Positions 41,080 through 64,000 of a stretch of 64,000 bases of DNA are shown here, piece after piece. The stretch covers positions 1 through 64,000 of the forward strand of contig CAXXVO010000006.1 in the NCBI GenBank assembly GCA_963422645.2, in the 5' to 3' direction. The notes under the pieces were generated by a model. The model worked only from the letters and a program-made list of their open reading frames with translations, had not been told where the DNA came from and searched no databases. Source of the DNA: Alphaproteobacteria bacterium. GTDB taxonomy: Bacteria > Pseudomonadota > Alphaproteobacteria > UBA828. Made by a program: the position numbers and the translations under genes. The stretch's first letter is position 1. Each line of letters begins with the position of its first letter.

Positions 41080-43134
41080 ATGAATGACATGTCGAGTGCG
41101 GCCGTTCGCGTCGCATGTGATGTCGGCGGCACGTTCACCGACGTGTGCGTCCTGGACGAAGCGACCGGCCAGATGCGCGTCGCCAAGACCCCAACAACGC
41201 CCGACCCCATCGACGGCGTGCTGGAGGGCATCAAGGCCGGCGGCGTCGACCTCAAGGACATGGTGCTCTTCGCTCATGGCACCACGCTCGCCACCAACGC
41301 GCTGATCACGCGCAACTTCCCGCCCGCGATCATGGTCACCACCAAGGGCTTCCGCGACGTGATCGAGATCCGCCGCGGCACCCGAGACGACCTCTGGGAC
41401 ACCTACAAGGAGATGGCGCCGCCCTACATCAAGCGCCGCGACCGTCTGGTCGTCACCGAGCGCATCGACTACAGCGGCACGGTCATCGAGCCGGTGAACG
41501 AGGCGGAGGCGCGGGAAGCCGCGCGCATCATCAACAAGCGCGGCGTGAAGACCATCGCGGTCTGCTTCGCCAACGCCTTCGCCAACCCCGAGAACGAGCG
41601 CCACATGCGCGACATCCTCGAGGAGGAGGTTCCCGGTGCGTCGATCTCGCTTTCCAGCGAGATCATGCCGGAGATCTTCGAGCACGAGCGCTTCTCGACG
41701 ACGGTGGCCAACGCGGTGCTCGCCCCCGTCGCGGGCGAATACGTGACGCGCCTCGCTACGCGGCTCCGCGAGGGCGGCTACGACGAGGACATTCTGCTGT
41801 TGCATTCCGGCGGCGGCGTGATGACCGAAAGCACGGCGTCGAAGTTCGCGGCCCGGCTCGCCGCCTCGGGCATCGCGGCGGGCGCGATCGCGAGCCGCTT
41901 CGTCGCCCAGCTTGCGGGCTACGAGAACTCGATCAGCCTCGACATGGGCGGCACCAGCACCGACGTCTCGCTCTGCGACCGGGGCAATCTGCGGGTCACC
42001 ACCGACTGGTACGTGCAGTACGGCTATCCGATCTGCTTCCCCAGCATCGAGGTGCTGACCATCGGCGCCGGCGGCGGCTCACTCGCCTGGATCGACGGAG
42101 CGAACTCGCTCCGCAACGGGCCGCAGTCGGCCGGCTCCATGCCGGGGCCCGCCTGCTACGGACGGGGCGGCGTGGAGCCCACCAATTCCGACGCCAACAT
42201 CGTCCTCGGCCGCATCAGCGACCGGCTTGCCGGCGGCGCCGTCACCCTCGACCGCGCGCTCGCCGAGGAGGCCATCAGGCGACGCGTGGCCGACCCGCTT
42301 GGGCTCACGGTGCAGGAGGCCGCGGTCTCCATCCTCCAGGTGGCGAACGCCAACATGGCGGACGCCGTGCGCCTGGTCTCGATCCGGCGCGGCTACGACC
42401 CGCGCGACTTCGCGCTCACCGTGTTCGGTGGCGCCGGGCCGCTCCATGGCGTGGCGCTGGCCCGCGACCTCTCGATCCCGACCGTGCTAGTGCCGCCGAA
42501 CCCCGGCGTCACCTCGGCGCTCGGCTGCCTGCTGGTGGATATCAAGCACGACATGTCGCAGATGTATCTGCGCTCCACCGATGACGCGAAGATCGAGGAA
42601 ATCGAGCAGACCTTCAGCGCGCTGGAGGACGAAGGCCGCCAGCGGCTTCTGCACGAAGGCGTCACCGAGGACCGGATGCAGTTCCAGCGCGTCGTCGACA
42701 TGCGCTATCTGGGCCAGTGGCGCTCCATGTCGATTGCGCTCGCCGCGGATGCGAACTCGCTCGACGCTGCGATCGCCCAGTTCCACGACGAGCACGGCCG
42801 CGAGCACAACTATTCCAGACCCGACGCGCCGGTCGAAATCTATCGCCTCACCGTCACCGCCACAGGGCTCTCGCAAAAGGCCGAATTCGCCAAGGAGGAG
42901 ATGGACCACTCGGCGCCGACGCCTGAGACCGAGCGGCTCGTGGTTTTCGACGAAGATCCTGAGCCGATCATGACCCCGATCTACAACCGCGACGGTCTGC
43001 ACGCAGGCGCAGTCGTCGAAGGGCCGGCGATCATCGAGCAGCTCGACTCCACGGTGCTGGTGCCGCCGGGTCTCAAGGCCGAGGTCGACCCCTGGCACAC
43101 CATTGTCATGCACATTCCGCAAGACGAGAGCTGA
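41080..43134 (+). CDS. Hydantoinase A/oxoprolinase family ATP-binding subunit
   Basis: DVGGTFTD, HGTTLATNA, DMGGTSTD, IGAGGGS, GPQSAGSMPGPACY, FGGAGPLH. Confidence 0.95.
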   Translation: MNDMSSAAVRVACDVGGTFTDVCVLDEATGQMRVAKTPTTPDPIDGVLEGIKAGGVDLKDMVLFAHGTTLATNALITRNFPPAIMVTTKGFRDVIEIRRGTRDDLWDTYKEMAPPYIKRRDRLVVTERIDYSGTVIEPVNEAEAREAARIINKRGVKTIAVCFANAFANPENERHMRDILEEEVPGASISLSSEIMPEIFEHERFSTTVANAVLAPVAGEYVTRLATRLREGGYDEDILLLHSGGGVMTESTASKFAARLAASGIAAGAIASRFVAQLAGYENSISLDMGGTSTDVSLCDRGNLRVTTDWYVQYGYPICFPSIEVLTIGAGGGSLAWIDGANSLRNGPQSAGSMPGPACYGRGGVEPTNSDANIVLGRISDRLAGGAVTLDRALAEEAIRRRVADPLGLTVQEAAVSILQVANANMADAVRLVSIRRGYDPRDFALTVFGGAGPLHGVALARDLSIPTVLVPPNPGVTSALGCLLVDIKHDMSQMYLRSTDDAKIEEIEQTFSALEDEGRQRLLHEGVTEDRMQFQRVVDMRYLGQWRSMSIALAADANSLDAAIAQFHDEHGREHNYSRPDAPVEIYRLTVTATGLSQKAEFAKEEMDHSAPTPETERLVVFDEDPEPIMTPIYNRDGLHAGAVVEGPAIIEQLDSTVLVPPGLKAEVDPWHTIVMHIPQDES

Positions 43135-43156
43135 CGCAGAGAGCGAGGAGAAGAAG

Positions 43157-45172
43157 ATGAGCAAGAACAGAGAAGGCTACACGCTCGACCCCGTGACCTT
43201 CGAGGTGCTCAAGAACGCCTACGTCAACATCGTCGACCAGATGGCGGAGCAGATCTTCCGCACCTGCTACTCCTTCGTGATCTGGTCGCGGGACTTCTCG
43301 TCCGCGATCTGCGATACCGAAGGCAACACCGTCATGCAGGGCTCGGGCGATATCGCCGCCCACGTGGGCACGCTGCACTACACGGCACAGGCCGTGATCA
43401 ACAAGTTCGGCGACGACATCCACCCCGGCGATACCTTCGTCGTGAATGATGTCTACCAGGGCGGCACCCACTTCAACGACACGCGCATCGTCCGCCCCAT
43501 CTTCTACAAGGGCATCCACCTCGGCTTCTCCCAGGCCAACGGACACTGGGCTGATGTCGGCGGCGCGGTGCCGGGCTCGTTCAACGTGAGCGCGCTCGAC
43601 CACATGGCCGAGGGGCTCCGCATCACGCCGGTCCGGGTCTACAGCAAGGGCCAGTACCTCTCCGACGTGGCCGAACTGATCGCCAACAACACCCGCGCAC
43701 CCGCCGACATCATCGGCGACCTGCAGGCCCAGGCCGAGGCCTGCAACGTCGCCGAGCGTGAGGTCTGCCGGCTCTGCGACAAGTACGGCGTCGACGTGAT
43801 CCAGACCTCCTTCGCCGAGGTGCAGGACTACGTCGAGACGCTGACCCGCCAGCGCATCGCCAAGCTGCCCGACGGCGTGTGGGAGACCGAGGACTACATC
43901 GACGTGGACCCGGTCGCCGGCGAGGGGCTGATCCCGATCCGCATCAAGATGACCATCGACGGCGACAGCGTGCACTACGATCTCTCCCGCTCGCATCCGA
44001 CGACGATCTCGACCTTCCTCAACTGCTGCTACGGCGGCGCGTTTGCGGCGATCGTCGCCGGCACCAAGATGCAATCGCCCGATATCCCGTTGAACTCGGG
44101 CTTCTACCGGGTGGTCACCGTCGATCTCGGGCCGTTAGGAACTGTGGTCAACGCGGACTGGCCCACGCCGGTCGCGGGCTTCTGCTCGGGCCCGTTCGAG
44201 AAGATCATGAACTCGGTGTTCGAGCTCTGGGCGGAAATCTTGCCCGAGCGCGCCATGGCCTGCACCTTCAACCTCGAGTACCTGCTGATCGGCGGGCGCG
44301 ATGGCCGCAAGGAGGATCGCCCCTACTTCATGTGGTACGACTGGATGGTGGGCGGCTGGGGCGCGCGCAACGGCCGCGACGGCTGGGGGGCGACCGGGCC
44401 GGTCTTCGGAGTCCAGCTCGGCACGCAGCCCTTCGAGGGGCAGGAGCGGCTCGCCCCGGTGCTGACCACCGGCCACGAGCTCATCGTCGATTCCGGCGGA
44501 CCCGGCAACTCGCGGGGCGGCCTCGGCGTCGAGAAGGGCGCGATCCTGACCAAGGCGGAGCGCTCGGTCGTCTCCTACTGCTGCGACCGCGAGCGCTCGG
44601 TGACCTGGGGCCTCTGGGGCGGGCTGCCGTCGATCCCGCACGGCGTCTGGGTCAATCCCGGCACCCAGGGCGAGCGCTACCTGGGCTCGATCTTCTCGGG
44701 TGTGCCGCTAGAAGCCGGCGACACCGTGACGCGGCCGTCCGCCGGTGGCGGCGGTCTCGGCGATCCCCTTACTCGCGACCTCGAAACGGTGTGCGAGGAC
44801 GTGGCCGACGGCTACGTCTCCATCGAGCGGGCCAAGAAGGACTATGGCGTCGTGATCTGTGAAATCGATGCCGATCTCGCGGAATACGAGGTCGACGAAG
44901 CGGCGACCGAGGCCGTGCGCGAGCGTATCCGTGCGCAGCGCCACGGTTTGCTCGACGTGGATGCCGAAGACATCGCGGCCAAGTACCGCAGCAAGGAACT
45001 CGACGCACTCGACCTGGTCCGCCAGTACGGCGTGATCGTGGACTGGGGCACCGGCGAGCTCCTGCCCAACACCACCCGCCAGTTCCGCGACATGTTGAGG
45101 CGCCGGACTGCGGCCCATTGGGAGGTGCCGGGCCAGGCGCGCAACGAGCAGCCGACGCTCCGCGTCGCCTAG
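43157..45172 (+). CDS. Hydantoinase B/oxoprolinase family subunit
   Basis: DPVTFEV, RDFS, NDVYQGGTHFND, HWADVGG, DSGGPG..RGG, GGGGLGDP. Confidence 0.95.
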   Translation: MSKNREGYTLDPVTFEVLKNAYVNIVDQMAEQIFRTCYSFVIWSRDFSSAICDTEGNTVMQGSGDIAAHVGTLHYTAQAVINKFGDDIHPGDTFVVNDVYQGGTHFNDTRIVRPIFYKGIHLGFSQANGHWADVGGAVPGSFNVSALDHMAEGLRITPVRVYSKGQYLSDVAELIANNTRAPADIIGDLQAQAEACNVAEREVCRLCDKYGVDVIQTSFAEVQDYVETLTRQRIAKLPDGVWETEDYIDVDPVAGEGLIPIRIKMTIDGDSVHYDLSRSHPTTISTFLNCCYGGAFAAIVAGTKMQSPDIPLNSGFYRVVTVDLGPLGTVVNADWPTPVAGFCSGPFEKIMNSVFELWAEILPERAMACTFNLEYLLIGGRDGRKEDRPYFMWYDWMVGGWGARNGRDGWGATGPVFGVQLGTQPFEGQERLAPVLTTGHELIVDSGGPGNSRGGLGVEKGAILTKAERSVVSYCCDRERSVTWGLWGGLPSIPHGVWVNPGTQGERYLGSIFSGVPLEAGDTVTRPSAGGGGLGDPLTRDLETVCEDVADGYVSIERAKKDYGVVICEIDADLAEYEVDEAATEAVRERIRAQRHGLLDVDAEDIAAKYRSKELDALDLVRQYGVIVDWGTGELLPNTTRQFRDMLRRRTAAHWEVPGQARNEQPTLRVA

Positions 45173-45189
45173 ATACCGCCCGTCGTCCC

Positions 45190-45879
45190 GTGAGCGTCGT
45201 CCTGGTCACGGGCGCCGATCGCGGCATCGGCAACGCGCTCTGCTGCGCCTGTCACGCGCGCGGCGACGACGTAATCGCGGCCTGCCTGGGTGACTCAGAC
45301 GAGCTGCGGGCTCTGGGGATCCGGGTGGAGCCCGGCGTAGACGTGACCTCCGACGAGGCGGTGCGGGGCTTCGCCGGCAGGCTCGCGGCCACCGGCACGG
45401 TCCTCGATCTCTTGATCAACAATGCCGGGATTGCGGAGCGGGACTCGCTCGGCGCGCTCGACTACGACGCCATCCGGCGGCAGCTCGAGGTCAACACGCT
45501 GGGGCCTCTTCGCGTGACCGAGGCGTTGCTGGGCCGCCTCACGCCGGGGTCAAAGGTCGCCTTCATCACCAGCCGGATCGGCTCGCTCGGCGACAACCAA
45601 TCGGGCGGGCTCTACGGCTACCGCATCTCCAAGTGCGCCGCCAACATGGTGGCGGTCAACCTCGCCCACGATCTAGCGAAGCGGGGCATCGCCGCCGTGG
45701 TCCTGCACCCCGGCATGGTGGCGACCGCCATGACCTTCGACGACGAGCGCCATGAGGCCCGTCCTCCCGAGGATGCCGCCGCCGCCCTGATCGAGCGGAT
45801 CGATCAGGTGGAGCGGGTGGAGCCCGGCACACCGCCCGCCTTCTGGCACGCGCCCGAGCGCACCATCATCCCGTGGTGA
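45190..45879 (+). CDS. Short-chain dehydrogenase (CsgA-like)
   Basis: TGADRGIG, NNAG, YRISK, HPG. Confidence 0.9.
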   Translation: MSVVLVTGADRGIGNALCCACHARGDDVIAACLGDSDELRALGIRVEPGVDVTSDEAVRGFAGRLAATGTVLDLLINNAGIAERDSLGALDYDAIRRQLEVNTLGPLRVTEALLGRLTPGSKVAFITSRIGSLGDNQSGGLYGYRISKCAANMVAVNLAHDLAKRGIAAVVLHPGMVATAMTFDDERHEARPPEDAAAALIERIDQVERVEPGTPPAFWHAPERTIIPW

Positions 45880-46069: not shown

Positions 46070-47059
46070 TCAGACATCCAGGCCGAGGCTCCGATGGAAG
46101 GCCTCGACGGCGGCGAGGGCAGCGTCGGCCGCGTCGTCCTGCTCCGGCAGGGCGCCGCAGTAGGCGGAGACTGCCTCGCGCGCGATCGGCATCCACTTCT
46201 CGATCCAGCCGCTGAGAACGGAAGCGTTCGCTTCGTTTTCCAGCGAGAACGCGACGAGGGCCGCGCTCCAGCGCCGCGAGCGCTCGCTGTCCCGCATCTG
46301 GTTGTCGGCCAGCAGCCCGAGCAGCCCGTCGTCGAAGCGGCGCCCGATGCGGCCGAGCTGCCGGTGCGCTTCGTCCGCAGCCGGCTTCGCCACCAGATTG
46401 AGCGCCACGAAGTGCTCGCCCCAGTCGTAGGTGGCGAGGGTCTTCTCCAGCAGCGCGCGAAAGCCCTGCCAGGCGGGCTCCTCCTCCCAGGTCCGGCGCT
46501 CGGTCGTCCCGAACCCGCGCGAAGGATGCGCCCGCTGAAGCTCGCGCGCGCGGTAGGCGCAGCGCGAGAGCCAGCGGAACTCGTCGCCGTCCTGAAAGCC
46601 GGCGCAGGCCGTGATCGTGCTCGCCGGCGCGATCTGCACCAGATAGGCCGCGCCCATCTGCAGCGCCATCTGCAGGAAGCGCCGGGGCGTGTAGAGCCGC
46701 TCCAGCACGTCGAGCCACGCGTCTGACAGCGTCGCGTCGTGGCCGATGTCGTTGTGCTCGTCGAGCAGGCCGTCGACGTACTGCTCCTGCTGGTCCTGAA
46801 TCCGCGTATAGACTCGGTAGATCATCTCATCCGGATCGCGGAAGCCTTCCCAGTCCGGATGCTGCAGCGGGCTCTCCGAGACGTTGCGCTTGTAGAACTC
46901 GTTCATCCCCAACAGCGGCGCCGGCGAAAGCTCGTAGGCCTGGTCCGGGTGCCGCGTGCGGGTCTGCAGGTTGGTGGTGACGACTTCGTACTCGCTCGGC
47001 CGCCGCCTCTTCTTGGCGAGGCCGCTCCACGTCTTCATGCCTTTGACTTCGACCGTCAC
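46070..47059 (-). CDS. Soluble diiron monooxygenase beta subunit (TmoE-like)
   Basis: KTWSGL..RRRPSEYEVV, WEGFRDPD, APASTI, YDWGEHFVALNLV. Confidence 0.93.
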   Translation of the reverse strand: MTVEVKGMKTWSGLAKKRRRPSEYEVVTTNLQTRTRHPDQAYELSPAPLLGMNEFYKRNVSESPLQHPDWEGFRDPDEMIYRVYTRIQDQQEQYVDGLLDEHNDIGHDATLSDAWLDVLERLYTPRRFLQMALQMGAAYLVQIAPASTITACAGFQDGDEFRWLSRCAYRARELQRAHPSRGFGTTERRTWEEEPAWQGFRALLEKTLATYDWGEHFVALNLVAKPAADEAHRQLGRIGRRFDDGLLGLLADNQMRDSERSRRWSAALVAFSLENEANASVLSGWIEKWMPIAREAVSAYCGALPEQDDAADAALAAVEAFHRSLGLDV

Positions 47060-47070
47060 GGTACTGCCCC

Positions 47071-47364
47071 CTAGCGTGCGACGAACCGGATGCCGTCCGG
47101 CTCGGTGCGAATGAACCCTGCGAAGCTCGGCATGTTCGACTCGATGTCGCCGAGGGTGACGGTGCGGCCGAGCACGTCGCCCACCGTCTCGAAGCGCACG
47201 AAGCACTCGTCCGCGACCTTGATCCTGATGTAGGACGCGTGGGTCTCGGTGATGACCTCGCATCCCTCGTTGTCCTCCTGGATCGCTTCGACCACCGCGT
47301 CCGCGATATCGCCCGCGCGCATCACGGGACCCACGAGATTGCCGGCGTCGTCTGCCGTCGTCAT
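47071..47364 (-). CDS. SDIMO effector/coupling protein (TmoD/MmoB-like)
   Basis: NLVGPVMRAG, EDN, LGR, SFAG motifs; GAAGGAG RBS. Confidence 0.92.
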   Translation of the reverse strand: MTTADDAGNLVGPVMRAGDIADAVVEAIQEDNEGCEVITETHASYIRIKVADECFVRFETVGDVLGRTVTLGDIESNMPSFAGFIRTEPDGIRFVAR

Positions 47365-47390
47365 GCTCGACTTCTCCTTCGGAAACGCGT

Positions 47391-47651
47391 TCAGCCGGCG
47401 CGGTAGATTTCCACGGACTCCATCTCGACGAAGCCGGCATCGGCGATGGTGAGATGGTCGGGTAGCGGGTCTTCGCTGCCCTGCACCCTCACCTTGAGAA
47501 CTGCATCGGGCGGGAAGGGCGCCACCAGGACGCCCGCGACCTGGTCCGCGACCTTCCCGGCCAGCACCGCCATGGTGTCGCCGGTGTCGAAGACCTGCAC
47601 CTTGTAGCCGTAGTCGCCTTCGAGCAGGACGGCGAGCGGGATATCGGCCAT
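47391..47651 (-). CDS. SDIMO gamma subunit (TmoB-like)
   Basis: 86 aa, P...EGD...VDT-DTM-like pattern; directly follows the alpha subunit. Confidence 0.85.
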   Translation of the reverse strand: MADIPLAVLLEGDYGYKVQVFDTGDTMAVLAGKVADQVAGVLVAPFPPDAVLKVRVQGSEDPLPDHLTIADAGFVEMESVEIYRAG

Positions 47652-47660: not shown

Positions 47661-49181
47661 CTACTCGGCCGCCGCCGCGCGCGGCACGTCGTAGCCGTCG
47701 ATCCACTGATAGTCGTAGCCGCAGACGCCGCGCTCCTCGAAGCTCTGGCCCATGTACTCGTAGAACCCATCGGGGCCCGGCGGCACGGTGCCGTCCAGCA
47801 ACCGGTCGATGATGCTGCGATGCCCCTGGTAGCGGGCGGGCTCCAGCTCGAAGACCCACTTGCAGGGCTCGCAGCAGAAGTGATAGCGCCGGCCTTCGTG
47901 GTCGAGGTGGAAGTCCGTGGCGTTCCATGTGCGCCCGTTCACCTGCCGGCCGACGCCCGCGATCCCGGTCACCTCCAGTCCGCACATGTTGCAGATCAGC
48001 GGCGGAACCACCGGCACCGTCTTCTCGAAGCGGCCCTCGCGGATATTGTCGATCACCATGTCCCAGCACTTGCCGTAGGTGTCGTTCCAGCCCGGATACT
48101 TCTCCTCCAGCCAGTCGCGTTCGGCCGGCGAGACGCAGGCGATGGGCCGCCACCACTGGGTCGCGCGGTAGACGTAGATACCGATCTGCTGACAATGGTG
48201 GAAGGTCTCGATATCGTGCAGGAAGTAGTCCCAGTACCAGGGCAGGTCGAGGCCCAAGGCCTTGATGTTGCGGCCGAACTGATCGACCACCCATTCGTGC
48301 ATGAACTCCTTGAGCGAATGCTCGCGAAACTCCAGCGGCGTGTAGTAGTCCATGGAGATGCCGCTCAGCGCGGAGAACTGCTTCCATATGCGCCAGAAGC
48401 CGATGTCGATCAGCTGCTGCGCCTCCGCCTTGCGCCCGTTCTCGATCATGATGCTGATGAGCGGCGTGCCGATCTGTGCGTGCCGCGCCTCGTCGGTCTG
48501 GATGCTTTGCAGCATGGTGGCGAAGGTGTGATCGCCGGCCTTCGCCGCGTCCGCAGAGAGGCCGATGAATTGCAGATTGGTAAAGCCCTGCTCAAAGGCG
48601 AAGTTGGTCATAATCGCGGCGCTGATCGCATCGCGGGTGTGCTCGACGTCGTCCAGCGCGTGGCGCAGGCTGATGATGATCCAGTTCTCGGTCTTGGACG
48701 ACTTATGCGCCCAGTCGAAGACGCGGTCCTGCTTGATGAACTCGTAGGCGAAATACATCTGGATCTGGCCGTGACGCATTTCGTCCAGGGTGCCGAAGGT
48801 CGCCATGTTGCGCATCCCCGGCGCGCGTGAGAACCGGGTCATGCGGGCGAAGGCCGACGCCGAGTGGAACTCGGCGAAGCCGATCGGGCTGAAGTGCAGC
48901 GCGAGCAGGGCCTTCCAGTGCGGCGTGGTGTTCTTGAAGTAGTCCGCCCGTGCCAGCGCCGACTTCACCGAATAGGCGCCGATGTCCTTATCGCGCTGGG
49001 TCTCGACATAGTCCCGGTAGCAGACCTTGTAGGGCTCGTCGAAGGTCTCCCACTGCTCGACCGGAATCCCGAAGGGATCGCTGAGTTCGGGCGGGAAAAT
49101 CTCCTCCTCGGCGACGTAGCCGGGAGTCCAGTTGGTATCCCGCGTGAGGTCGTACCATTCGTGCATCTCGAGCAGCGCCAT
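47661..49181 (-). CDS. SDIMO alpha subunit (TmoA-like) with C-terminal YHS domain
   Basis: WYDLTRDTNWTP, RNMATFGTLDEMRH and SIQTDEARHAQIG (two DExRH motifs), WLEEKYPGWN, YHFCCEPCKWVF. Confidence 0.95.
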   Translation of the reverse strand: MALLEMHEWYDLTRDTNWTPGYVAEEEIFPPELSDPFGIPVEQWETFDEPYKVCYRDYVETQRDKDIGAYSVKSALARADYFKNTTPHWKALLALHFSPIGFAEFHSASAFARMTRFSRAPGMRNMATFGTLDEMRHGQIQMYFAYEFIKQDRVFDWAHKSSKTENWIIISLRHALDDVEHTRDAISAAIMTNFAFEQGFTNLQFIGLSADAAKAGDHTFATMLQSIQTDEARHAQIGTPLISIMIENGRKAEAQQLIDIGFWRIWKQFSALSGISMDYYTPLEFREHSLKEFMHEWVVDQFGRNIKALGLDLPWYWDYFLHDIETFHHCQQIGIYVYRATQWWRPIACVSPAERDWLEEKYPGWNDTYGKCWDMVIDNIREGRFEKTVPVVPPLICNMCGLEVTGIAGVGRQVNGRTWNATDFHLDHEGRRYHFCCEPCKWVFELEPARYQGHRSIIDRLLDGTVPPGPDGFYEYMGQSFEERGVCGYDYQWIDGYDVPRAAAAE

Positions 49182-56240: not shown

Positions 56241-56302
56241 GTGGCGATGCCACGGCGTGATCGTACGCCGCCGTGGCGAGAGCGCAAATGAGGAGGAAGG
56301 CG

Positions 56303-57553
56303 ATGAAGACGGAAGGCTTGCACGTCGTCCGGCCGCGCGCGGCGGGTCTGGACGTGCACAAGATGGAGATCACCGCGACGGTTCGCCTCTGTGAGGGCGA
56401 GGGTGAGCCGGTGGTGGAGACGCGCTGCTTCGGCACGCTGCCGAGCGGTCTGGAGGAGATGGTCGCGTGGCTGACCGGTCACGGCGTCGAGGCTGCGGTG
56501 ATGGAAGGGACCGGGGTCTACTGGCAGGCGCCCTTCGCGGCCCTGGAGGCGGCCGGGCTCGAGGCGATCCTGGTGCATGCGCGTCAGGTGAAGCAGTTGA
56601 AGGGGCGCAAGACCGACGTGGCGGACAGCGTGTGGCTGGCCTGCGTGTGCCAGTTCGGGCTCTGCACGCCTTCCCACGTTCCGCCTGAGCCGTTCCGGGA
56701 GCTGCGCGCACTGAGCCGCCAGCGCCGCGTCCTGGTCAGGCAGCGCTCCGCCGTGCGCAACCGCGTGCAGAAGATCATCGACCGCGCCGGTGCGCGCATC
56801 GGCGGCATCCTCTCCGACGTCTTCGGCGTCAACGGCCGGAAGATCCTCGACGGCCTGGCGCAGGGGACGGCGCGCGAGGTCATCCTCGCCTCGCTCACCA
56901 GCCACGTTGCGAACAAGCTGGAGGGGCTCGGCGAGGCGCTCACCCTGAGCCTGGGCGACAACGACCGCTTCATGCTCAACGACCTGCTGGAGGAGCATGA
57001 CGCGCTTGAGGCGCGCATCGCGTCCTACACCAGGAAGATCGACGGGCAGATGACACCGTGGGAGGAGCAGCTCCGTCTGCTGACCACCATCCCCGGCATC
57101 GACCGCACCGCCGCCTCGACCATCCTCATCGAGATCGGCCCCGACATCGGCGTGTTCGCCTCCAAGGAGCACTTCGCCGCCTGGGCCGGGCTCTGCCCCG
57201 GCAACAACGAGAGCGGGGGCAAGCGCCGCAACGCACGCACCCGCATGGGCTCCAAGACCCTGCGCGCCTGCCTCGTCGAGTGTGCCCACGGCGCGGCCCG
57301 AACCAAGGGGTGCCAGTTCGAGGCTCATCACCGCGCCCTCGCCGCCCGGCGCGGCTACAAGCGCGCCATCGTCGCCGGCGCTCACAAGATGCTGCGCATC
57401 ATCTATGTGGTGCTCAAGACCGGCAGGCCCTACTACGACCGCACGGCCGACTACGACGCTCTGATGGTCAAGCGCAACGCTCCTCGGTGGATCCGCATGC
57501 TCCGCCGCTACGGCTACATCGAGCCCGTAGGCGCGGAACTCAAGGCCGCCTGA
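56303..57553 (+). CDS. IS110-family recombinase (DEDD + Ser)
   Basis: GLDVHK, MEGTG, KTDVADS, TIPGI, NESGGK; AGGAGG RBS. Confidence 0.95.
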   Translation: MKTEGLHVVRPRAAGLDVHKMEITATVRLCEGEGEPVVETRCFGTLPSGLEEMVAWLTGHGVEAAVMEGTGVYWQAPFAALEAAGLEAILVHARQVKQLKGRKTDVADSVWLACVCQFGLCTPSHVPPEPFRELRALSRQRRVLVRQRSAVRNRVQKIIDRAGARIGGILSDVFGVNGRKILDGLAQGTAREVILASLTSHVANKLEGLGEALTLSLGDNDRFMLNDLLEEHDALEARIASYTRKIDGQMTPWEEQLRLLTTIPGIDRTAASTILIEIGPDIGVFASKEHFAAWAGLCPGNNESGGKRRNARTRMGSKTLRACLVECAHGAARTKGCQFEAHHRALAARRGYKRAIVAGAHKMLRIIYVVLKTGRPYYDRTADYDALMVKRNAPRWIRMLRRYGYIEPVGAELKAA

Positions 57554-59140
57554 GCGGCCCGCATCTCGTCAGCCGGCTACGCGGGACCGCTTCGGACCAC
57601 ATCGGGGAAGTCCACCGCTCGTCTCCGCCGCGCCGACCCTGGCGGTCTCAGCCAACGCCGTGACCTCGGGGTTGGAGCGTCACCGCGCGTCCCTCGCCAG
57701 AATCTGTTTCACGGCAAAAGCGAAAGACTGCATCGCGCGCCTGACCGAGATCGAGTTCCGTCCACTACCGGAGCTGGAGCCCGAGCAAAACGTCTTCGGC
57801 CATCGCGGCGTCTACTCCTCCCACGACCTGCTCAGCGCCTACAACCGGCTGATCGAGAACATGCTCGAGATGGGCTCCTACCATTTCGAGATGCTGAACC
57901 TCGGCTACGGCGCCTACCTGACCTTCCGCGACTTCTGCCAGCAGGCGTTCTCCGGAATAACCGACCGCACGCTGACGCAAATCGTCTGCGGCATCGACAA
58001 TCTGCTGCTGCGGCCGGACGACAAGGTCCGTGAGCTGGCCGAACTGGCGGTTGAGCGAGACCTCGCTGACGTTGTCCTGCAGCACGACGACCCGGACGCG
58101 ATGCTGACCGCCATGGCGAAAGCGGACGGCGGGGACGAATGGCTGGAGGCTCTCGAGGCCGCCAAGGAGCCGTGGTTCCACTTCTCCACGGGCATCGGCT
58201 ACGACCATTCCGATCCGGTGTGGATTGACGACCTGCGGCTGCCCTTCATCGCGCTGCGCGGCTATGTCGAAGCGTTGCAGAGGGGCGAGGACATCCGCCG
58301 CCCACTTGAGAAGCTGCTGGCGGAGCGGCAACGGGTGACGGAGGAATACCGCGCACTCCTGCCCACCGATCAGGACCGCGAGGCCTTCGACGGCCTGCTG
58401 ACGCTCACCTGCAAGGTCTTCCCCTACGTCGAGGATCACAACTTCTACGTCGAGCATTGGCATCACACGATCTTCTGGTCGAAGGTGCGGGAGCTCGCCG
58501 ACGTCTTCGTCGCGCACGACTTCTTCGACGACCGCGAAGACCTCTTCTACCTGCATCGCCACGAGGTCTACGACGCGCTCTACGATCTGCTGATTGGCTG
58601 GGCCACGGGCACGCCGCCGCGAGGCGAAGTCTACTGGCGGCCCATCGTCGAGCGGCGACGGCGCATTCGGGACTCGCTCTGCAAGTGGACGCCACCGCCG
58701 GCATTGGGAACCCCGCCGTCGGTCGTCACCGAGCCCATCACCATCATGCTGTGGGGCATCACCGAGAAGACGATCGAGGAGTGGCTGGGCGTCGACCCCG
58801 CCGCCGGCGGCGATGTCCTGCGTGGCGTGCCCGCTTCCGCCGGCAAGGCGACCGGGCCGGCCCGCGTGATCACCCGCTCGGAGGACCTCTACAGCGTCAA
58901 CGAGGGTGAGATCCTGGTCTGCCGGATCACGGCGCCGAGCTGGGCGACGGTCTTCTCCCGAATTGGCGCGGCGGTCTCCGACGTCGGCGGCATGATGGCT
59001 CATACCGCGATCATCTCGCGCGAGTACGGGCTGCCCGCCGTCGTCGGCGTGGGCTTTGCCACGGCGACGATCCAGACCGGCGACCGGGTCGAGGTCGACG
59101 GCAACGAGGGCACGGTGACGGTTCTGGAGAGAGCCGCGCC

Positions 59141-60238
59141 GTGACCGGCGATCCCCACATTCTGTGGCTGGATCAGGAGGGCGCGCCGGACAACCCGCTG
59201 CTCGGCGGCAAGTTCGCGAGTCTCGCCGAGATGACGGCGGCGGGCTTCGCCGTGCCCCCTGGGTTCGGCGTGACCACCGCCGCCTATCGCGCCTTCATGG
59301 CCCACGCGGGCCTCGATGGTAAGGCCGCGTTTGTGCGGGAGGCCGCGCGCCGCAAGGCGCTCGCGGACATCGGGAGCACGCGCGCGCGGCTCGTGGAGGT
59401 CATTGGCGCGGCCCCGATGCCGGAGGAGCTGGAGACGGCGATCCGACGCAACTACGCGATCCTTGAAGAGAGGACGGGCCGGGCCGCTGTGCCGGTGGCT
59501 GTGCGCTCCAGCGGCGAAGCGGAGGACCTGGCCGATGCGAGCTTCGCCGGCCAGTACGACACCTATCTCTGGGTCACCGGCGCCGTTGCCGTGCTGCGGC
59601 ATGTGCGGGCGTGCTGGGCCAGCATGTTCGGCGACGCGGCCCTCTCCTACCGGGCCGGCGGCGGCGACGGGGCGGCCGAGGGCAACTACGGCATCTGCGT
59701 GGGCGTTCAGCAAATGGTTGAGGCGCGTGCCGCCGGCGTCATGTTCACCCTCGACCCCTTGAACGGCGATCGCTCGAAGATCGTCATGGAGGCCTGCTGG
59801 GGCCTCGGCGAGGGCGTGGTCAAGGGCGACGTGACGCCGAGCCGCTTCACCGTCGACAAGGTGACGCTGGAAATCGTCCAGCGAGAGATCGTGCCGCAAG
59901 CGGAGGAATACCGCTTCGATACCGCCTCGGGCGCGGTGAGATTGATGCCGCTCGCGCCTGAGCGAGCGCGCGCAGCCTGCATCGAGGACGCGGAGGCGCT
60001 CGCGCTGGCCCGGCTCGCCAAGCGGATCGAGGGGCATCGCGGCGCGGCGCAGGACATCGAATGGGCGATCGGCCCGGACGGCGAGGTGCGAGTCCTCCAG
60101 GTCCGGCCCGAGACGGTGTGGAGCCAGCGAGAAAGCGCCGGCCTCGTCTCTGAAAGCAGGAGCGCGGTCGGGCACGTGCTCGCCAGGCTCTCGGGCGGCC
60201 GGGTGGCGACGGCGAACCCCGGACAGAGAGACCGGTGA
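59141..60238 (+). CDS. PEP/pyruvate-binding dikinase N-terminal protein (PpsB/CreI-like ATP-grasp)
   Basis: GGKFASL, VPPGF, VAVRSS..EDL..ASFAGQYDTYL, WGLGEGVV, QDIEWA, LQVRPET. Confidence 0.92.
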   Translation: MTGDPHILWLDQEGAPDNPLLGGKFASLAEMTAAGFAVPPGFGVTTAAYRAFMAHAGLDGKAAFVREAARRKALADIGSTRARLVEVIGAAPMPEELETAIRRNYAILEERTGRAAVPVAVRSSGEAEDLADASFAGQYDTYLWVTGAVAVLRHVRACWASMFGDAALSYRAGGGDGAAEGNYGICVGVQQMVEARAAGVMFTLDPLNGDRSKIVMEACWGLGEGVVKGDVTPSRFTVDKVTLEIVQREIVPQAEEYRFDTASGAVRLMPLAPERARAACIEDAEALALARLAKRIEGHRGAAQDIEWAIGPDGEVRVLQVRPETVWSQRESAGLVSESRSAVGHVLARLSGGRVATANPGQRDR

Positions 60239-61107
60239 AGAGCGCCGACTTCGCCTACCACCGCCCGGACGATATCGCGGAAGCGGTGCGCTATCTGCGG
60301 GATTACGACGGCTCCGCACGTGTCCTGGCCGGCGGCCAGAGCCTGATGCCGATGATGAACATGCGGCTCTGGCGCCCGGATGCTCTGATCGACATCAACG
60401 GGCTCACTGACCTCGCCCAGTTGACAGTCGAGGGGGACGAGACTCGGATCGGCGCGCTGGTCCGCTACAGCACGCTTGAGTTCTCGCCCCTTGTCGCGGA
60501 GCGGCTGCCGCTCATCAAGGCGATGGTGGCCTTCGTCGGCGACCGCCAGGTGCGCAATCGCGGCACCATCGGGGGCAGCTTGGTGCAGGGCGACCCGACG
60601 GGCGAAATGCCGCTCGGCTGCCTGGTGCTCGGCGCGACAGCCAGCGCCCTCGGGCCGTCCGGCGCGCGCACCATCGCCATGACGGAGCTCTACGAGGGCG
60701 CCTACGCCACCACGCTCGCGCCCGACGAGGTGCTGACGCAGATCCGCTTTCCCCCGCATCCGCCGCACTTCGCCTTTCGCGAGTGCTGCCGACGGCACAA
60801 CGATTTCTGCGTGCTCTCGGTGGCGGCGGCCGGTCACATCTCGGACGACGGCCGCTGGAGCGAACTTCGCATCGGGCTCGGCGGAGTCAACGACACGCCG
60901 GTTCTGGCCGAGGCCGGCATGGCTCTTCTCGACGGAAGTCGCCTCGACGACACCGACATCGCCGCGACAGGCGAGGCTGCGCTCGACGCCATCGACCCGC
61001 CCGACGATATCCGGGGCTCGGCCGAATACCGCGCCCACCTCGTGCCGCTCTACGTCGCGCGGGCGTTGCGCGACCTGCGCGCCTCGGCGCAAGCGGCCGC
61101 GCGATGA
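60235..61107 (+). CDS. Mo-hydroxylase FAD-binding medium subunit
   Basis: LAGGQSLMP, QVRNRGTIGGSL, DDIRGSAEYR. Confidence 0.93.
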   Translation: MKSADFAYHRPDDIAEAVRYLRDYDGSARVLAGGQSLMPMMNMRLWRPDALIDINGLTDLAQLTVEGDETRIGALVRYSTLEFSPLVAERLPLIKAMVAFVGDRQVRNRGTIGGSLVQGDPTGEMPLGCLVLGATASALGPSGARTIAMTELYEGAYATTLAPDEVLTQIRFPPHPPHFAFRECCRRHNDFCVLSVAAAGHISDDGRWSELRIGLGGVNDTPVLAEAGMALLDGSRLDDTDIAATGEAALDAIDPPDDIRGSAEYRAHLVPLYVARALRDLRASAQAAAR

Positions 61108-61610
61108 AATATCGCCACGAGTTCCGCGTCCGGGAAAGCGGCGACAAGGTCTGGCGCTTCTTCGAACAGCCGCTGGAGGTCGCGCGCTGCATGCCGGGAG
61201 TCGAGGAGGTGGAGCCAGTGGAAGGCGAGGACGACAGCTATTCCGTCCGCGCGACCCAGAAACTCGGACCCATGTCGACGACCCTCCAGGCCAAGGTGCG
61301 CATCACCGAGCGCGTCGCCGGCGCGCGCATCGCCTTCACGGCGACCGGCAAGGCGGTGCGCGGCGCGGTCGGGAATTTTCGGGCGCAGAACGTGGTGACG
61401 CTCGCGCAGGCAGGAGGCGAGACCTGCATCGCGGTGGAGGGCGAGGTCGCACTGGCCGGCGTGCTCGGCACCGTCGGCAGCGCGGTAGTCAACAAGCACG
61501 CCGCGAAGGTGACCGCGGAATTCGCCTCCAACCTGGAGCAGGCGCTCTCGGCCGCCGACGAGCCGCGCGCCGGACACCGGCCCGAGGAGACTGCCGTTGA
61601 GCGGCAATGA
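61104..61610 (+). CDS. SRPBCC (CoxG-like) subunit
   Basis: VW.FF..P..VARCMPG pattern; translationally coupled to its neighbours. Confidence 0.88.
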   Translation: MKYRHEFRVRESGDKVWRFFEQPLEVARCMPGVEEVEPVEGEDDSYSVRATQKLGPMSTTLQAKVRITERVAGARIAFTATGKAVRGAVGNFRAQNVVTLAQAGGETCIAVEGEVALAGVLGTVGSAVVNKHAAKVTAEFASNLEQALSAADEPRAGHRPEETAVERQ

Positions 61611-62106
61611 GCTGGCCTTCGCTTTCCGCCTGAACGGCGAGGCGGTATCGGCCGAGGCGCCGGCCCGCATGCACGCGGCCGACTTCCTGCGCCATCGCCT
61701 GGGCTGGACCGGCACCCACGTCGGCTGCGAGCAGGGCGTCTGCGGCATGTGCACGATCCTGGTGGACGGCGCCGCGATCAAGTCCTACCTGATGCTCGCC
61801 GTGCAGCTCGACGGCGCCGAGGTGAGAACGGTCGAAGCCCTGGCCGAAGGCGACCGCCTGAATGCGGCGCAGGAGGCCTTCAAGCGGCACCACGCGCTCC
61901 AGTGCGGCTACTGCACGCCGGGCTTCCTGATGCTGGCGGAAAGCCTGAAGGCCGGCGGCCGGGTGCTCTCCCGCGCCGAGATCCGCGAAGAGCTCGCCGG
62001 CGTCCTCTGCCGCTGCACCGGCTACGAGAACATCCTGCGCGCAGTGGAGGACTATCTGGGCGCGGACCGGGCCGCAGAGCCGCCCGGCGGCGAGGAGTCG
62101 GAATGA
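61597..62106 (+). CDS. Mo-hydroxylase [2Fe-2S] small subunit (one ligand Cys replaced by Tyr)
   Basis: GCEQGVCGMC...KSY(C)L, QCGYCTPG, CRCTGY. Confidence 0.9.
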   Translation: MSGNELAFAFRLNGEAVSAEAPARMHAADFLRHRLGWTGTHVGCEQGVCGMCTILVDGAAIKSYLMLAVQLDGAEVRTVEALAEGDRLNAAQEAFKRHHALQCGYCTPGFLMLAESLKAGGRVLSRAEIREELAGVLCRCTGYENILRAVEDYLGADRAAEPPGGEESE

Positions 62107-64000
62107 GGGCTCCGCGCCAGAGCCTCATCGGCGCCTCGCTCCCGCGCAAGGAGGACGATCGCCTGCTGCAAGGCGACGGCCTCTTCACCGACGACGTGCA
62201 ACTGGCCCACCAGCTGGAGATGGCGGTGGGCCGCTGCCCCTTCCCCCGCGCTGCGATCGGTGCGATCGACGTGGCTCAAGCCCGCGCCCTCCCCGGCGTC
62301 AGGCACATCCTGACGGGCGCCGGCGTGCGGGCCGCGAGCGAGCCGCTGACGGTGTTGCGGCCGGTGCCCGGCGCGCCCCTGCTGCCCTACTACGCGCTGG
62401 CGGGTGAAGAGGCGATCCACGAGGGCCAGCCGGTGGTGAGCGTGGTGGCGACCAGCCGCGCCATTGCCGAGGACGCGCTGGAGCTCATCGACATCGACTA
62501 CGAGCCGTTGCCGCATGTGACCGACACGCTCGGCGCGCTCGCCGACGACGCGCCGGTGCTGCATCCCGAGACGCTGCCGTCCAACCTGCTGACCAGCAAC
62601 GTGGACCGCGCCGGGGAGCCGGAGAGCCGCATGGCTGCGGCCCCGGTCGTGGTCGAGGGACGCTTCCACGTGAACCGGGTGAGCGCGCTCCCGATGGAGG
62701 CGCGCGGCATCGTCGCCCATTGGCGTGCCGGCGCCCGCGCGCTGGAGGTCTACGCCTCTACCCAGACGCCGCATCTGATCCGGCAGCAGTTGGCGGAGTG
62801 CCTGCCCCTCGACGAGGGGTGCATTCGGGTCATCGCCTCCGATGTCGGCGGCGGCTTCGGCATGAAGCTCGGCCTCTATCCCGAGGACGTGCTGGCAGCG
62901 CTGCACGCCATGGCAATCCGGCGTCCGGTCAAGTGGATCGAGGACCGCCTGGAATTCTTCCGCGCCAGCACCCAGGCGCGCGAGGCCGTGCACGACCTTC
63001 GCATCGGTGCCGAGGCCGACGGCCGCATCGTCGCGGTCACCAACCAGTACACCACCGACCTCGGCGCCTGGAACTCGACCTACGGCTCGGCGCAGCTCTC
63101 GAGCGTGGTCTTCACCGGCCCTTACAAGGTGGCCGATGCGGCGGTCGAGCGCCGCGTCGCGCTCACCAACAAGACGCCGGTCGGGGCCTATCGCGGCTAC
63201 GGCCAGCCGGAGGTCAACTTCGCCCTGGAGGTGTTGCTCGACCGGCTGGCGCGCCGGCTCAAGATCGACCCGCTGGAGCTAAGGCGACGGAACTTGCTCC
63301 GGCCGGAGGACCTGCCCTGGACCACGCCGAGCCGCGCGGTCTACGACAGCGGCGATTACCTGAAGACCCTGCAGCTGGCCGCCGACGCGGTCAATTACGA
63401 CGCCCATCGCGCCGGCCGCCGCGACAACCGGGGCGACGAGCGCCTGACGGGTATCGGCTTCGCCTCCTTCGTCGAGCGCACGGGCTATGCCAGCGCGCGC
63501 TTCCTCGCAGGCCGCGGCTCCCGCTTCGGCGCCCACGAGAGCGTGACCTTGCGGGCCAACCGCTCCGGCGGCATCGACCTCTACACCGGGGTCTCCACCT
63601 TCGGCCAGGGCAGCGAGACGGCCTTCGCCCAAGTCTGCGCCGAGGTCTTCGGCATCGACTACGAAGCCATCACCGTCCATGCCGGCGACAGCGGTGCATC
63701 GCCGCTCAACACCGGCGCCTTCGCCTCACGCACCCTGATCGCGGCTGCCGGCGCCATCCGCGAGGCCGCGGACGCGCTGCGCAACAAGACCCTCCGCATC
63801 GCGGCCATGGTCCTGCAATCGACTCCGGGCGCGCTGGAGGTGAGCGGGCGCGCCGTGCACGTAGCAGACGAACCCGGCCGCACCGTGCCGCTCGCCGACA
63901 TCTTCACCCGCGCGATCATCGGGCAGGGAATTCCGGAAGACGAGGAGCCGGGCCTGGAGGCGGCCGCGCACTTCGAGCCCACGCATGCGTCGTTTTCCTT
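62103..64000 (+). CDS. Xanthine-dehydrogenase-family molybdopterin large subunit (partial, runs off the window)
   Basis: Manual translation: RKEDDRLLQG, DVGGGFGMK, GAYRGYGQPE, GQG, GAFASR. Confidence 0.92.
   Translation, partial: MRAPRQSLIGASLPRKEDDRLLQGDGLFTDDVQLAHQLEMAVGRCPFPRAAIGAIDVAQARALPGVRHILTGAGVRAASEPLTVLRPVPGAPLLPYYALAGEEAIHEGQPVVSVVATSRAIAEDALELIDIDYEPLPHVTDTLGALADDAPVLHPETLPSNLLTSNVDRAGEPESRMAAAPVVVEGRFHVNRVSALPMEARGIVAHWRAGARALEVYASTQTPHLIRQQLAECLPLDEGCIRVIASDVGGGFGMKLGLYPEDVLAALHAMAIRRPVKWIEDRLEFFRASTQAREAVHDLRIGAEADGRIVAVTNQYTTDLGAWNSTYGSAQLSSVVFTGPYKVADAAVERRVALTNKTPVGAYRGYGQPEVNFALEVLLDRLARRLKIDPLELRRRNLLRPEDLPWTTPSRAVYDSGDYLKTLQLAADAVNYDAHRAGRRDNRGDERLTGIGFASFVERTGYASARFLAGRGSRFGAHESVTLRANRSGGIDLYTGVSTFGQGSETAFAQVCAEVFGIDYEAITVHAGDSGASPLNTGAFASRTLIAAAGAIREAADALRNKTLRIAAMVLQSTPGALEVSGRAVHVADEPGRTVPLADIFTRAIIGQGIPEDEEPGLEAAAHFEPTHASFS

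Follow-up and report, generated by a model that had tools for sequence, protein, structure and literature searches.

The first 64,000 nucleotides (nt) of contig CAXXVO010000006.1 (assembly GCA_963422645.2, Alphaproteobacteria bacterium, UBA828), referred to here as the window and corresponding to C7:1-64000 of a 5.9-Mb genome in 23 contigs, carry a mosaic island of separable modules that is partly decayed in this genome. The island joins a toluene-type diiron monooxygenase operon with its importer, a kinase-coupled molybdenum (Mo) hydroxylase, and a HydA/HydB pair of the ATP-dependent lactamase family. We estimate at roughly 0.45 the probability that this is a composite island whose three modules cooperate, in relatives that retain them intact, on an imported, polar and probably N-containing aromatic compound, and a single route for such a compound is plausible. 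Observed directly were the genes present, the limits of the modules, how these are conserved and how they have decayed in this genome; the chemistry of each step, the class of substrate and the link between the modules are what we infer. The joining of the three modules is a lineage-specific variant of module types that are known but biochemically unexplained. Its new elements are an HD phosphatase in the kinase-Mo module, a polar residue signature in TmoA, and the family-wide co-occurrence of the arms.

In the proposed route, module 1 would comprise the Lrp regulator, an arginine-less 3x-Rid protein, a TauT/NitT-type ABC importer, TmoABDE and a short-chain dehydrogenase/reductase (SDR), to which relatives add a deacetylase-type hydrolase. 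It would import the compound and then hydroxylate it by means of the diiron enzyme, with the ferredoxin and the reductase supplied in trans to TmoABDE. In module 2, a PpsA/PpsB-like kinase would phosphorylate the new ring hydroxyl, the Mo enzyme would add a second oxygen, and an HD phosphohydrolase would take the phosphate off. HydAB, as module 3, would open a cyclic amide formed downstream. The features of the island, with gene classes assigned by Pfam and NCBIfam scans of the open reading frames (ORFs) of the window, are as follows (IS, insertion sequence; PEP, phosphoenolpyruvate).

38491-40773, plus strand: transposase (Transposase_29; Pfam), left boundary of the island, with several near-identical copies elsewhere in the genome
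41014-43134, plus strand: HydA, ATP-binding subunit (Pfam Hydantoinase_A, Hydant_A_N, Hydant_A_C)
43103-45172, plus strand: HydB, hydrolytic subunit (Pfam Hydantoinase_B)
45118-45879, plus strand: SDR (Pfam adh_short), real start probably at about 45190
46070-47068, minus strand: TmoE-like hydroxylase beta subunit (Pfam Phenol_Hydrox)
47071-47346, minus strand: TmoD-like effector protein (Pfam MmoB_DmpM)
47391-47651, minus strand: TmoB-like small subunit (Pfam TmoB)
47661-49181, minus strand: TmoA-like diiron hydroxylase alpha subunit with a C-terminal YHS domain (Pfam, alignments, tree)
49251-50291, minus strand: periplasmic binding protein of the NMT1/SsuA/TauA type (Pfam, NCBIfam)
50335 to about 51135, minus strand: ABC transporter ATPase (Pfam, NCBIfam)
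51192-52094, minus strand: ABC transporter permease (Pfam, NCBIfam)
52116-53351, minus strand: 3x-Rid, three Rid domains in a single chain (three Pfam stretches)
53390 to about 53902, minus strand: Lrp/AsnC regulator (Pfam)
54119-54436, plus strand: scar ORF of 105 codons, remnant of the deletion of a polysaccharide-deacetylase gene
54433-54860, plus strand: N-terminal fragment of the PpsA-like PEP-utilising kinase subunit (NCBIfam PRK08296)
54861-55912, plus strand: IS1595-type element, transposase at 54941-55906
about 55946-57718, plus strand: IS110-type element, transposase at 56273-57553, ends known to within about 3 nt
57719-59144, plus strand: C-terminal fragment of the PpsA-like subunit (Pfam PEP-utilizers; PRK08296)
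59141-60238, plus strand: PpsB-like ATP-grasp subunit (PPDK_N; Pfam, NCBIfam)
60235-61107, plus strand: CoxM-type FAD subunit of the Mo hydroxylase (Pfam)
about 61113-61610, plus strand: separate CoxG/SRPBCC subunit of about 165 aa (Pfam)
61597-62106, plus strand: CoxS-type 2x[2Fe-2S] subunit of the Mo hydroxylase (Pfam)
62103-64475, plus strand: CoxL large subunit of the Mo hydroxylase (Pfam); the window ends at 64000 and the gene is complete in the contig
C7:64486-65160: HD-type gene of about 224 codons, 3' of CoxL, beyond the window
C7:65228-69100: second CoxM-S-L set, beyond the window, followed by two transposase genes

The plus-strand genes for HydA, HydB and the SDR converge on the minus-strand monooxygenase operon, whose order of transcription is 3x-Rid, permease, ATPase, binding protein, TmoA, TmoB, TmoD and TmoE; the Lrp/AsnC gene lies upstream of 3x-Rid on the same strand. 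An earlier interpretation of this DNA from its letters alone, the sequence-only reading, had named these gene classes, and each of them was recovered by Pfam or NCBIfam. Pfam thus verified both the convergent hydantoinase A/B and SDR unit on the left and the left arm of triple Rid, ABC importer and T4MO-type soluble diiron monooxygenase. The same reading had described one divergent locus around the Lrp gene. It is not so clean a unit: the PEP-utiliser gene was found in two pieces with IS elements between them.

Conservation of the island was analyzed by a TmoA-based locus scan with one genome per species (49 loci, L numbers) and by whole-genome searches in 60 relatives (G numbers), in which family f1 comprised 37 genomes including the present one (G000). 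The locus set and the genome set are not independent, because both derive from the same one-genome-per-species collection. The entire arrangement, without the IS elements, was present at five of the 49 loci (L002, L003, L004, L012 and L039), with TmoA 94-97% identical to that of the window. In family f1, 14 genomes had both the TmoA clade (at least 75% identity) and the kinase, one had the kinase only, 16 had neither, and TmoA without the kinase was seen in six (G002, G010, which is 62% complete, G015, G016, G018 and G028). The kinase arm was therefore present in 14 of the 20 family genomes with the TmoA clade versus 1 of the 17 without it. The kinase-only genome, G013, keeps a truncated Rid3 gene and a deacetylase gene beside its kinase arm, which is next to a urease operon. 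Of the 11 genomes of the window's genus with both arms, 10 had them on a single contig at a distance of 6-9 kb, and G001 had them on separate short contigs. In G025, which belongs to another genus, the monooxygenase and kinase arms were on different contigs. The contig ends in G024 and G036 are too near the kinase gene to show its neighbours, and the 1.3 kb beyond the kinase gene in G024 contained no deacetylase or Lrp gene. The Lrp/AsnC gene accompanied the monooxygenase arm in L009, L010, L045, G025 and G028, where no kinase arm was adjacent. These results show that the arms are separable modules and that the kinase arm was found only where the TmoA clade or its remnant is present. Synteny of the modules in other genomes, by which the sequence-only reading was to be judged, was kept within the window's genus, whereas the arms were separate in G025, G013, G002, G015, G016, G018 and G028. 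The co-occurrence pattern also yields a short list of intact relatives.

The right arm is a self-contained seven-gene module encoding a PpsA/PpsB-like kinase, CoxM, CoxG, CoxS, CoxL and a putative HD-type phosphohydrolase. The C-terminal PpsA-like fragment has the swivel-histidine motif GGMMAHTAII. The kinase pair is directly upstream of the hydroxylase genes, and the same order was found in G009, G013, G024, G025 and G036. CoxM, CoxG, CoxS and CoxL are encoded by four separate ORFs with a stand-alone SRPBCC subunit, and CoxG ends about 19 residues past the COXG domain, with no C-terminal membrane extension. The best solved relative of CoxL was quinoline 2-oxidoreductase (504 bits), followed by form-II CoxL (475 bits) and 6-hydroxypseudooxynicotine dehydrogenase (381 bits). 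CO dehydrogenase was ruled out as the identity of CoxL, since its loop reads AYRGYGQ without the copper-binding cysteine of what we take to be the CO-dehydrogenase motif, and its best match is quinoline 2-oxidoreductase. A grouping of the Mo enzyme far from N-heterocycle hydroxylases, which would have told against the sequence-only reading, was thus not found.

The HD-type gene directly follows CoxL in this genome and in five of five relatives (G009, G013, G024, G025 and G036). Its family contained 411 representatives at E ≤ 0.001, of which 68 members were aligned. H59, D60, H86 and H120 were invariant in this alignment, and H33, E121 and D135 were near-invariant (H33 and D135 in at least 90%). 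Pfam HD matched 46 of the 68 members and DUF4202 matched 65, whereas the protein of this genome matched only DUF4202, with E = 0.0017. Its structure model had a pLDDT of 89, and the best Foldseek matches were HD hydrolases with TM scores of 0.5-0.66 and weak E-values of 0.013 and above. The family alignment and the model suggest that the gene 3' of CoxL codes for an HD-type phosphohydrolase.

PpsB-like proteins at E ≤ 1e-70 were found in only 3 of 400 other genomes of the class (41-45% identity), and no Cox genes occurred in the stretches fetched around them. A kinase gene near the monooxygenase in L014 proved to be a pyruvate phosphate dikinase (PPDK) fragment (NCBIfam, 534 bits) outside the module. 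Kinase pairs were also seen at two plasmid loci; the plasmid matches included no record from Ensifer. On a Thermomicrobium roseum plasmid (L058, NC_011961.1, 752835-774223), from a distant phylum, an Lrp/AsnC-domain gene and a PpsA/PpsB-like pair accompany a three-subunit xanthine-dehydrogenase-family enzyme with no annotated SRPBCC subunit. On a Rhizobium leguminosarum plasmid (L055, NZ_CP125638.1, 594570-619976), the PpsA/PpsB-like pair is followed by genes for a biotin carrier, biotin carboxylase, a hypothetical protein, a HAD hydrolase and acetoacetate-CoA ligase, and this gene set could be a kinase-coupled carboxylation module.

The right arm was compared by gene architecture with the 3hpd cluster of Ensifer adhaerens HP1. 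In the available portion of the preprint on this strain (bioRxiv 10.1101/2020.01.08.898148), a four-component hydroxylase, HpdA1A2A3A4, with a separate SRPBCC subunit is described, and orf9 (PPDK) and orf10 (PEP-utilising) at the 5' end are genetically required for the hydroxylase through a mechanism that is left unexplained. The same text gives HpdA3 a signal peptide and a transmembrane segment after its domain (aa 138-233). Relative to this account, the right arm likewise has a PEP-utiliser and PPDK pair 5' of the Mo hydroxylase, whose four subunits include SRPBCC as a protein of its own. Its CoxG, by contrast, is a short protein devoid of the signal and membrane segment, and the maleamate-pathway genes, contiguous in 3hpd as described there, are not beside it. 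In the right arm, a putative HD phosphohydrolase gene follows CoxL. The sequence-only reading had equated the right arm with the 3hpd gene set; the core architecture bears this out, but maleamate-gene contiguity, the HpdA3 segments and an intact kinase gene do not. The PpsA-like kinase gene is intact in the relatives and split in this genome. In a literature search, 3-hydroxypyridine, a dikinase and molybdenum were joined only in the 3hpd preprint. A kinase-dependent Mo hydroxylase has a single genetic precedent with an open mechanism, and the HD phosphohydrolase after CoxL suggests a testable one for 3hpd, namely phosphorylation, hydroxylation and dephosphorylation.

The Cre system for 4-cresol follows a protect-oxidise-deprotect logic with the CreHI kinase, the CreJEF cytochrome P450 and the CreD phosphohydrolase. 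The window module, as proposed, would resemble it in that a split PEP-synthase-like kinase phosphorylates a ring hydroxyl, oxidation takes place elsewhere, and a dedicated phosphohydrolase follows. On the other hand, the oxidising enzyme in the window is a Mo hydroxylase and not a P450. On a Rhodococcus ruber plasmid, TmoABCDEF genes lie, according to the annotation only, beside a cre-like cluster of P450, kinase and HD genes, so that the kinase cluster adjoins a toluene-type monooxygenase that would make the hydroxyl. The PpsA-like fragments are only 44-46% identical to the R. ruber protein, and the HD proteins are barely alignable (E = 0.003). This plasmid is a genomic precedent for the monooxygenase-then-kinase logic.

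A more specific proposal is that the polar TmoA clade starts an undescribed aerobic N-heterocycle route and that in the family the product enters a phosphate-handle cycle of kinase, Mo hydroxylase and HD protein before the lactamase opens the ring. In this cycle the kinase would tag the ring hydroxyl, the Mo hydroxylase would oxidise next to the ring nitrogen, and the HD phosphatase would untag the product. We regard the proposal in this form as doubtful. If true, the cycle would also explain the kinase requirement of 3-hydroxypyridine dehydrogenase. No paper joining a soluble diiron monooxygenase, N-heterocycles and a hydantoinase was found in the literature search.

TmoA of the window aligned end to end with the alpha subunits of ToMO (1t0q, 618 bits) and T4MO (3dhg, 600 bits), and the six diiron ligands (E104, E134, H137, E197, E231 and H234 in ToMO numbering) were present in it and in all 52 aligned rows. 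The genes for the beta, TmoB and TmoD subunits are encoded together with TmoA (Pfam Phenol_Hydrox, TmoB and MmoB_DmpM), and the TmoB, TmoD and TmoE partners stand in the same order as in ToMO/T4MO. Unlike the ToMO/T4MO operons, that of the window lacks TmoC and TmoF, and the enzyme sits in an operon with an importer and 3x-Rid. No matches to TmoC or TmoF were obtained in the window or at the clade loci with TmoA of at least 75% identity, and between TmoB and TmoD there is neither an ORF nor room for a ferredoxin gene. This agrees with the sequence-only reading, which had implied that no Rieske ferredoxin or reductase gene is present at the locus. Candidates in trans are a Rieske TmoC gene (C7:106973-107275) and a TmoF-like reductase gene (C3:141282-142340), the former being the only TmoC-like gene of the genome and part of a second, rearranged monooxygenase set. 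This second toluene-type set (loci L051 and L053) is split: TmoA2-B2-C2-D2 are at C7:106607-109347 with a BolA gene after them, and the beta gene is at C9:6071-7162 beside an IS66 transposase gene. A HydAB pair about 8 kb from the second monooxygenase was set aside as a chance neighbour, with IS66 and Transposase_29 between them and no HydAB at the loci of that paralogue clade.

In a maximum-likelihood tree of the 52 TmoA rows, the window protein fell in a 20-row clade (support 100/99) that spans Alpha-, Beta- and Gammaproteobacteria. Its signature is S107, E180, H181, T192, N193 and Q198, and the window protein has L176. S107, E180, H181 and T192 are common to 19 of the 20 clade rows; deviating residues occur in L010 (A180 and L192) and in L015 (L192). 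At positions 107, 180, 181 and 192, ToMO carries A, M, M and L, in contrast to S, E, H and T in the window, and the other clades are apolar (L or V at 192). Positions 107, 176, 180 and 192 are those that we take to form the ToMO/T4MO substrate pocket, presumably with the apolar set A107, F176, M/I180 and L192, from which the window TmoA departs. The 3x-Rid gene was present in the fetched flank of 16 of the 20 clade rows and of none of the 32 rows outside the clade. Among the four clade rows without it, L001 lies on a contig that begins 301 nt ahead of TmoA, the Rid protein of L016 has one domain, and none was seen in L008 and L011. By identity, 3x-Rid was found within 10 kb at 17 of the 21 loci with TmoA of at least 60% identity versus 0 of the 28 loci below 60%.

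The distant members of the clade (60-64% TmoA identity), which include the isolates Zavarzinia aquatilis and Pusillimonas caeni, carry TmoABCDE and in some cases also TmoF. Their loci add 3x-Rid, a polysaccharide-deacetylase-type gene, a CobW GTPase and an M20 deacylase, together with an NCS1 nucleobase-type permease or an NMT1-type ABC system. Such neighbours speak for a polar, N-rich substrate whose ring or amide bonds would later be hydrolysed, rather than for a hydrocarbon. The polar residues and the transporter and hydrolase neighbours likewise argue against a plain hydrocarbon role. This clade of toluene-type diiron monooxygenases looks made for polar N-compounds and not for hydrocarbons. 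No paper linking a diiron monooxygenase with a deacetylase and RidA was found in the literature search.

In the alignment of 3x-Rid, the Arg of PH0854 and YabJ is replaced by Ala in domain 3, and domains 1 and 2 have Thr and Gly at the matching motif, as read by eye. The catalytic arginine of RidA is R105, and none of the three domains appears to have it. The 3x-RidA architecture was named by Niehaus et al. (2015, PMC4433059). Compared with its description in the accessible part of that paper, the window protein likewise has three fused Rid domains, presumed to form a covalent trimer, and differs in lacking the RidA arginine in all three. The usual partner of 3x-Rid is a polysaccharide-deacetylase-type gene, which is deleted in the window. 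A paralogous 3x-Rid gene (52% identity, C9:235717-237876, L054) lies beside polysaccharide-deacetylase, amidohydrolase and ABC permease genes with no monooxygenase gene; therefore, the Rid-deacetylase pair also recurs on its own. The solved matches of the binding protein were all weak, the best being TauA (45 bits), with SsuA, ThiY and the pyrimidine-precursor binder 3ix1 (28 bits) also among them.

The best NCBIfam match of HydA was the caprolactamase CapA, with 524 bits versus a cut-off of 1000, and HydB scored 335 bits against the NCBIfam caprolactamase, also with a cut-off of 1000. Among solved structures, HydB was related to CapB (6yra_B, 289 bits), N-methylhydantoinase (7hk5, 283 bits) and acetone carboxylase (68 bits). 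The D, H, D and H residues of the CapB metal site, as listed in the available part of PMC8453981, align in HydB. These matches indicate that HydAB is an ATP-dependent lactamase-family enzyme and not a caprolactamase at the equivalog level. In comparison with CapAB (6yra) and N-methylhydantoinase (7hk5), as far as their description in that part goes, the two-subunit HydA/HydB architecture and the metal-site residues are kept. The window pair is, however, far under the caprolactamase cut-offs and one of about 30 paralogous pairs. A route for acetone or propane (monooxygenase, SDR, acetone carboxylase) was ruled out by the 68 bits of HydB, compared with 289 bits for the caprolactamase.

The best NCBIfam match of the SDR was IsoH, with 271 bits versus a cut-off of 350. 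The SDR gene adjoins TmoE in L001-L007, L012, L039, G002, G009, G018 and G025, and orthologues of the window HydAB come after it in L001, L002, L004, L012, G002 and G009. In G025 and L010, a second, non-orthologous type of HydAB occupies the same position; these pairs share 71-82% identity with one another and 30-37% with the window pair. The recurrence of two HydAB types at the same position is the best evidence that the lactamase belongs with the monooxygenase arm.

The decay of the island in this genome was traced in two genes. The N-terminal PpsA-like piece covers positions 7-126 of the PRK08296 model and the C-terminal piece positions 134-608 (the family has about 605 residues). The ORF at 54433-54939 has no Pfam family, and the PEP-utiliser ORF spans 57660-59144. 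The two pieces are parted by 2.86 kb containing the IS1595-type and IS110-type elements. About 25 nt between the two elements (55921-55945) are kinase-gene sequence, and therefore two separate insertions took place. The IS1595-type element carries perfect terminal inverted repeats of 22 bp and is flanked by an 8-bp target duplication, TTCGAGAA, at 54853-54860 and 55913-55920. About 20 identical copies of its transposase and more than 50 of the IS110-type transposase are present in the genome; with so many 100%-identical copies of both, the insertions must be recent. The PpsA-like gene is uninterrupted in the close relatives L002, L004, L012 and L039. In most relatives, a polysaccharide-deacetylase gene lies between the Lrp and kinase genes. 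In this genome and in L012, about 760 nt of this gene are gone, and the 105-codon ORF at 54119-54436 spans the scar. The locus thus documents recent gene loss through IS elements in a very IS-rich chromosome.

Elsewhere in the genome, the IS110-type element of the kinase gene is also arranged in tandem, with 2 to 5 copies head to tail that repeat about every 1768 bp (C11:48438-56789, C16:27502-32315, C10:44926-49740, C8:170027-173072, C8:728253-731299 and C5:476694-479740). The transposase load is very high, both in the window (1-1895, 21124-22983, 35262-36962 and 38491-40773) and genome-wide, with dozens of identical IS110-type, IS1595-type and Transposase_29 genes on all large contigs and with interrupted genes. 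This load and the interrupted genes fit an ongoing IS expansion.

RNA-library contigs from four libraries of four studies, two of them labelled sponge metagenome, showed 90-99% likeness to the locus and lay on the relatives' TmoA/B/D/E, transporter, Rid3 and PpsA sequences. Each of the four libraries contained a contig joining 54852 to 55912, that is, an IS-free kinase gene. RNA libraries can contain DNA, and the contigs give no expression level or operon structure; they are weak evidence for activity of intact relatives in communities of this kind.

Several observations weigh against a cooperation of the three modules. Full synteny is confined to the window's genus, and HydAB is absent beside the arm in L005-L007 and L009. 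The monooxygenase arm is retained in six genomes that have no kinase arm, so it works, or at least persists, alone. The kinase arm of G025 is flanked by hemC, hemD, gpsA and pirin genes. The co-occurrence of the TmoA clade and the kinase anticipated by the sequence-only reading was evident in the family counts, but these overstate the coupling because close kin are not independent; at the genus level the signal is modest, the TmoA clade being present in 5 of 10 genera and the kinase in 4 of these 5 and in no other. This genome contains many paralogues of HydA/HydB (about 30 pairs) and of CoxL (about 14), so that the gene adjacency at the island is less striking than the window alone implies. 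The kinase gene is split, and therefore the proposed route cannot run as written in this genome. Neither maleamate-pathway genes nor other ring-cleavage or downstream genes turned up in the window, at C7:62-82 kb, or next to the arm in G025 and G013. A PF02073 search of this genome, the one pathway family that was searched for, gave a single weak M29-like match below the cut-off (23.8 bits) between IS66 copies. The HD-like protein has the faint family and fold matches given above, the weight of the polar TmoA signature depends on our assumption about the pocket, and the lack of the Rid arginines weakens a pyridine-type variant. The main alternative holds that the modules have unrelated functions and different substrates and came to lie side by side, in the ancestor of a single genus, within an accessory region rich in IS elements. 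We consider this a serious possibility, though short of even odds. It is favoured by the restriction of full synteny to loci with TmoA of at least 94% identity, by the separate contigs and unrelated kinase neighbours in G025, and by the occurrence of the monooxygenase arm alone in G002, G015, G016, G018 and G028 and of the kinase arm without monooxygenase in G013. The richness of the genome in IS elements and paralogues, and its tolerance of both IS insertions and of the deacetylase deletion, are in line with it. Against it stand the presence of the TmoA clade in 14 of the 15 family genomes with the kinase, of which the fifteenth keeps Rid3 and the deacetylase, and the occurrence of two different HydAB types at the same position. 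Moreover, a hydroxylated arene is what PpsAB- and CreHI-type kinases take, and the pairing recurs on the Rhodococcus plasmid.

Other routes were weighed against the composite one. The left arm alone could convert a cyclic amine to a lactam and leave the kinase/Mo arm as a separate system: the monooxygenase would hydroxylate the carbon next to N of a saturated N-heterocycle, the SDR would oxidise the carbinolamine to a lactam, HydAB would yield the amino acid, and the Rid and deacetylase proteins would handle imine or amide side products. The SDR beside TmoE across the genus and in G025, the HydAB genes of two types converging on the SDR, and the HydB metal site shared with CapB in a protein closest to caprolactamase and N-methylhydantoinase are consistent with such a route. 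A cationic amine would fit the acidic E180 found in 19 of the 20 clade rows, provided that this residue borders the pocket, as we assume for ToMO. Nevertheless, this route is purely inferential and we judge it unlikely. We know of no characterised diiron monooxygenase of the ToMO/T4MO group that hydroxylates cyclic amines; the distant clade members lack SDR and HydAB and have the deacetylase and the M20 hydrolase instead, and the Rid domains are without the imine-deaminase arginine. In the route of the sequence-only reading, a pyridine-type base is 3-hydroxylated, an HpdA orthologue and the kinase give a 2,5-dihydroxypyridine-like lactam, and the lactamase opens the ring. In its favour are the match to the 3hpd core architecture in the available preprint text, quinoline 2-oxidoreductase as the nearest solved relative of CoxL, and an NMT1-type family that includes the pyrimidine-precursor binder 3ix1, itself a weak match. 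The pyridine specifics, on the other hand, found little support, and none was obtained for the opening of a dihydroxypyridine lactam by the lactamase. We know of no ATP-dependent lactamase for aromatic pyridones. The known enzymes, according to the available part of PMC8453981, act on saturated cyclic amides (lactams, hydantoins and oxoproline), and the available part of PMC8313251 reports mainly N-oxidation for T4MO-type enzymes that act on pyridines. With the maleamate-pathway genes beside neither arm and a CoxG without the HpdA3 signal and membrane segment (both unlike the available 3hpd description), with Rid domains devoid of the catalytic arginine, and with a broken kinase gene in this genome, we hold the pyridine route to be quite improbable. 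Even less probable, and in our view hardly tenable, is an ordinary oxidiser of toluene-, alkene- or isoprene-type hydrocarbons with an IsoH-like dehydrogenase. The high TmoA scores against ToMO and T4MO, the IsoH match of the SDR, and genes for a glutathione S-transferase and a family III CoA-transferase 17 kb away, which are gene types of isoprene clusters, speak for it. Yet the IsoH score is under its cut-off, no glutathione-pathway genes are in the operon, the positions assumed to form the ToMO pocket are polar, the clade neighbours are amidohydrolases and nucleobase-type transporters, and the ABC importer and 3x-Rid at the start of the operon serve no purpose for volatile hydrocarbons.

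Two further gene groups were noted in the window. The glutathione S-transferase and family III CoA-transferase genes lie with GNAT and tautomerase genes at 26955-30527, 17 kb from the SDR. An islet at 14049-18313, which contains cupin, SnoaL-like, amidase, glyoxalase-fold and FAD-monooxygenase genes and is situated between Mu Gp27-like ORFs (2024-2893 and 18375-18974), may be another mobile catabolic cassette.

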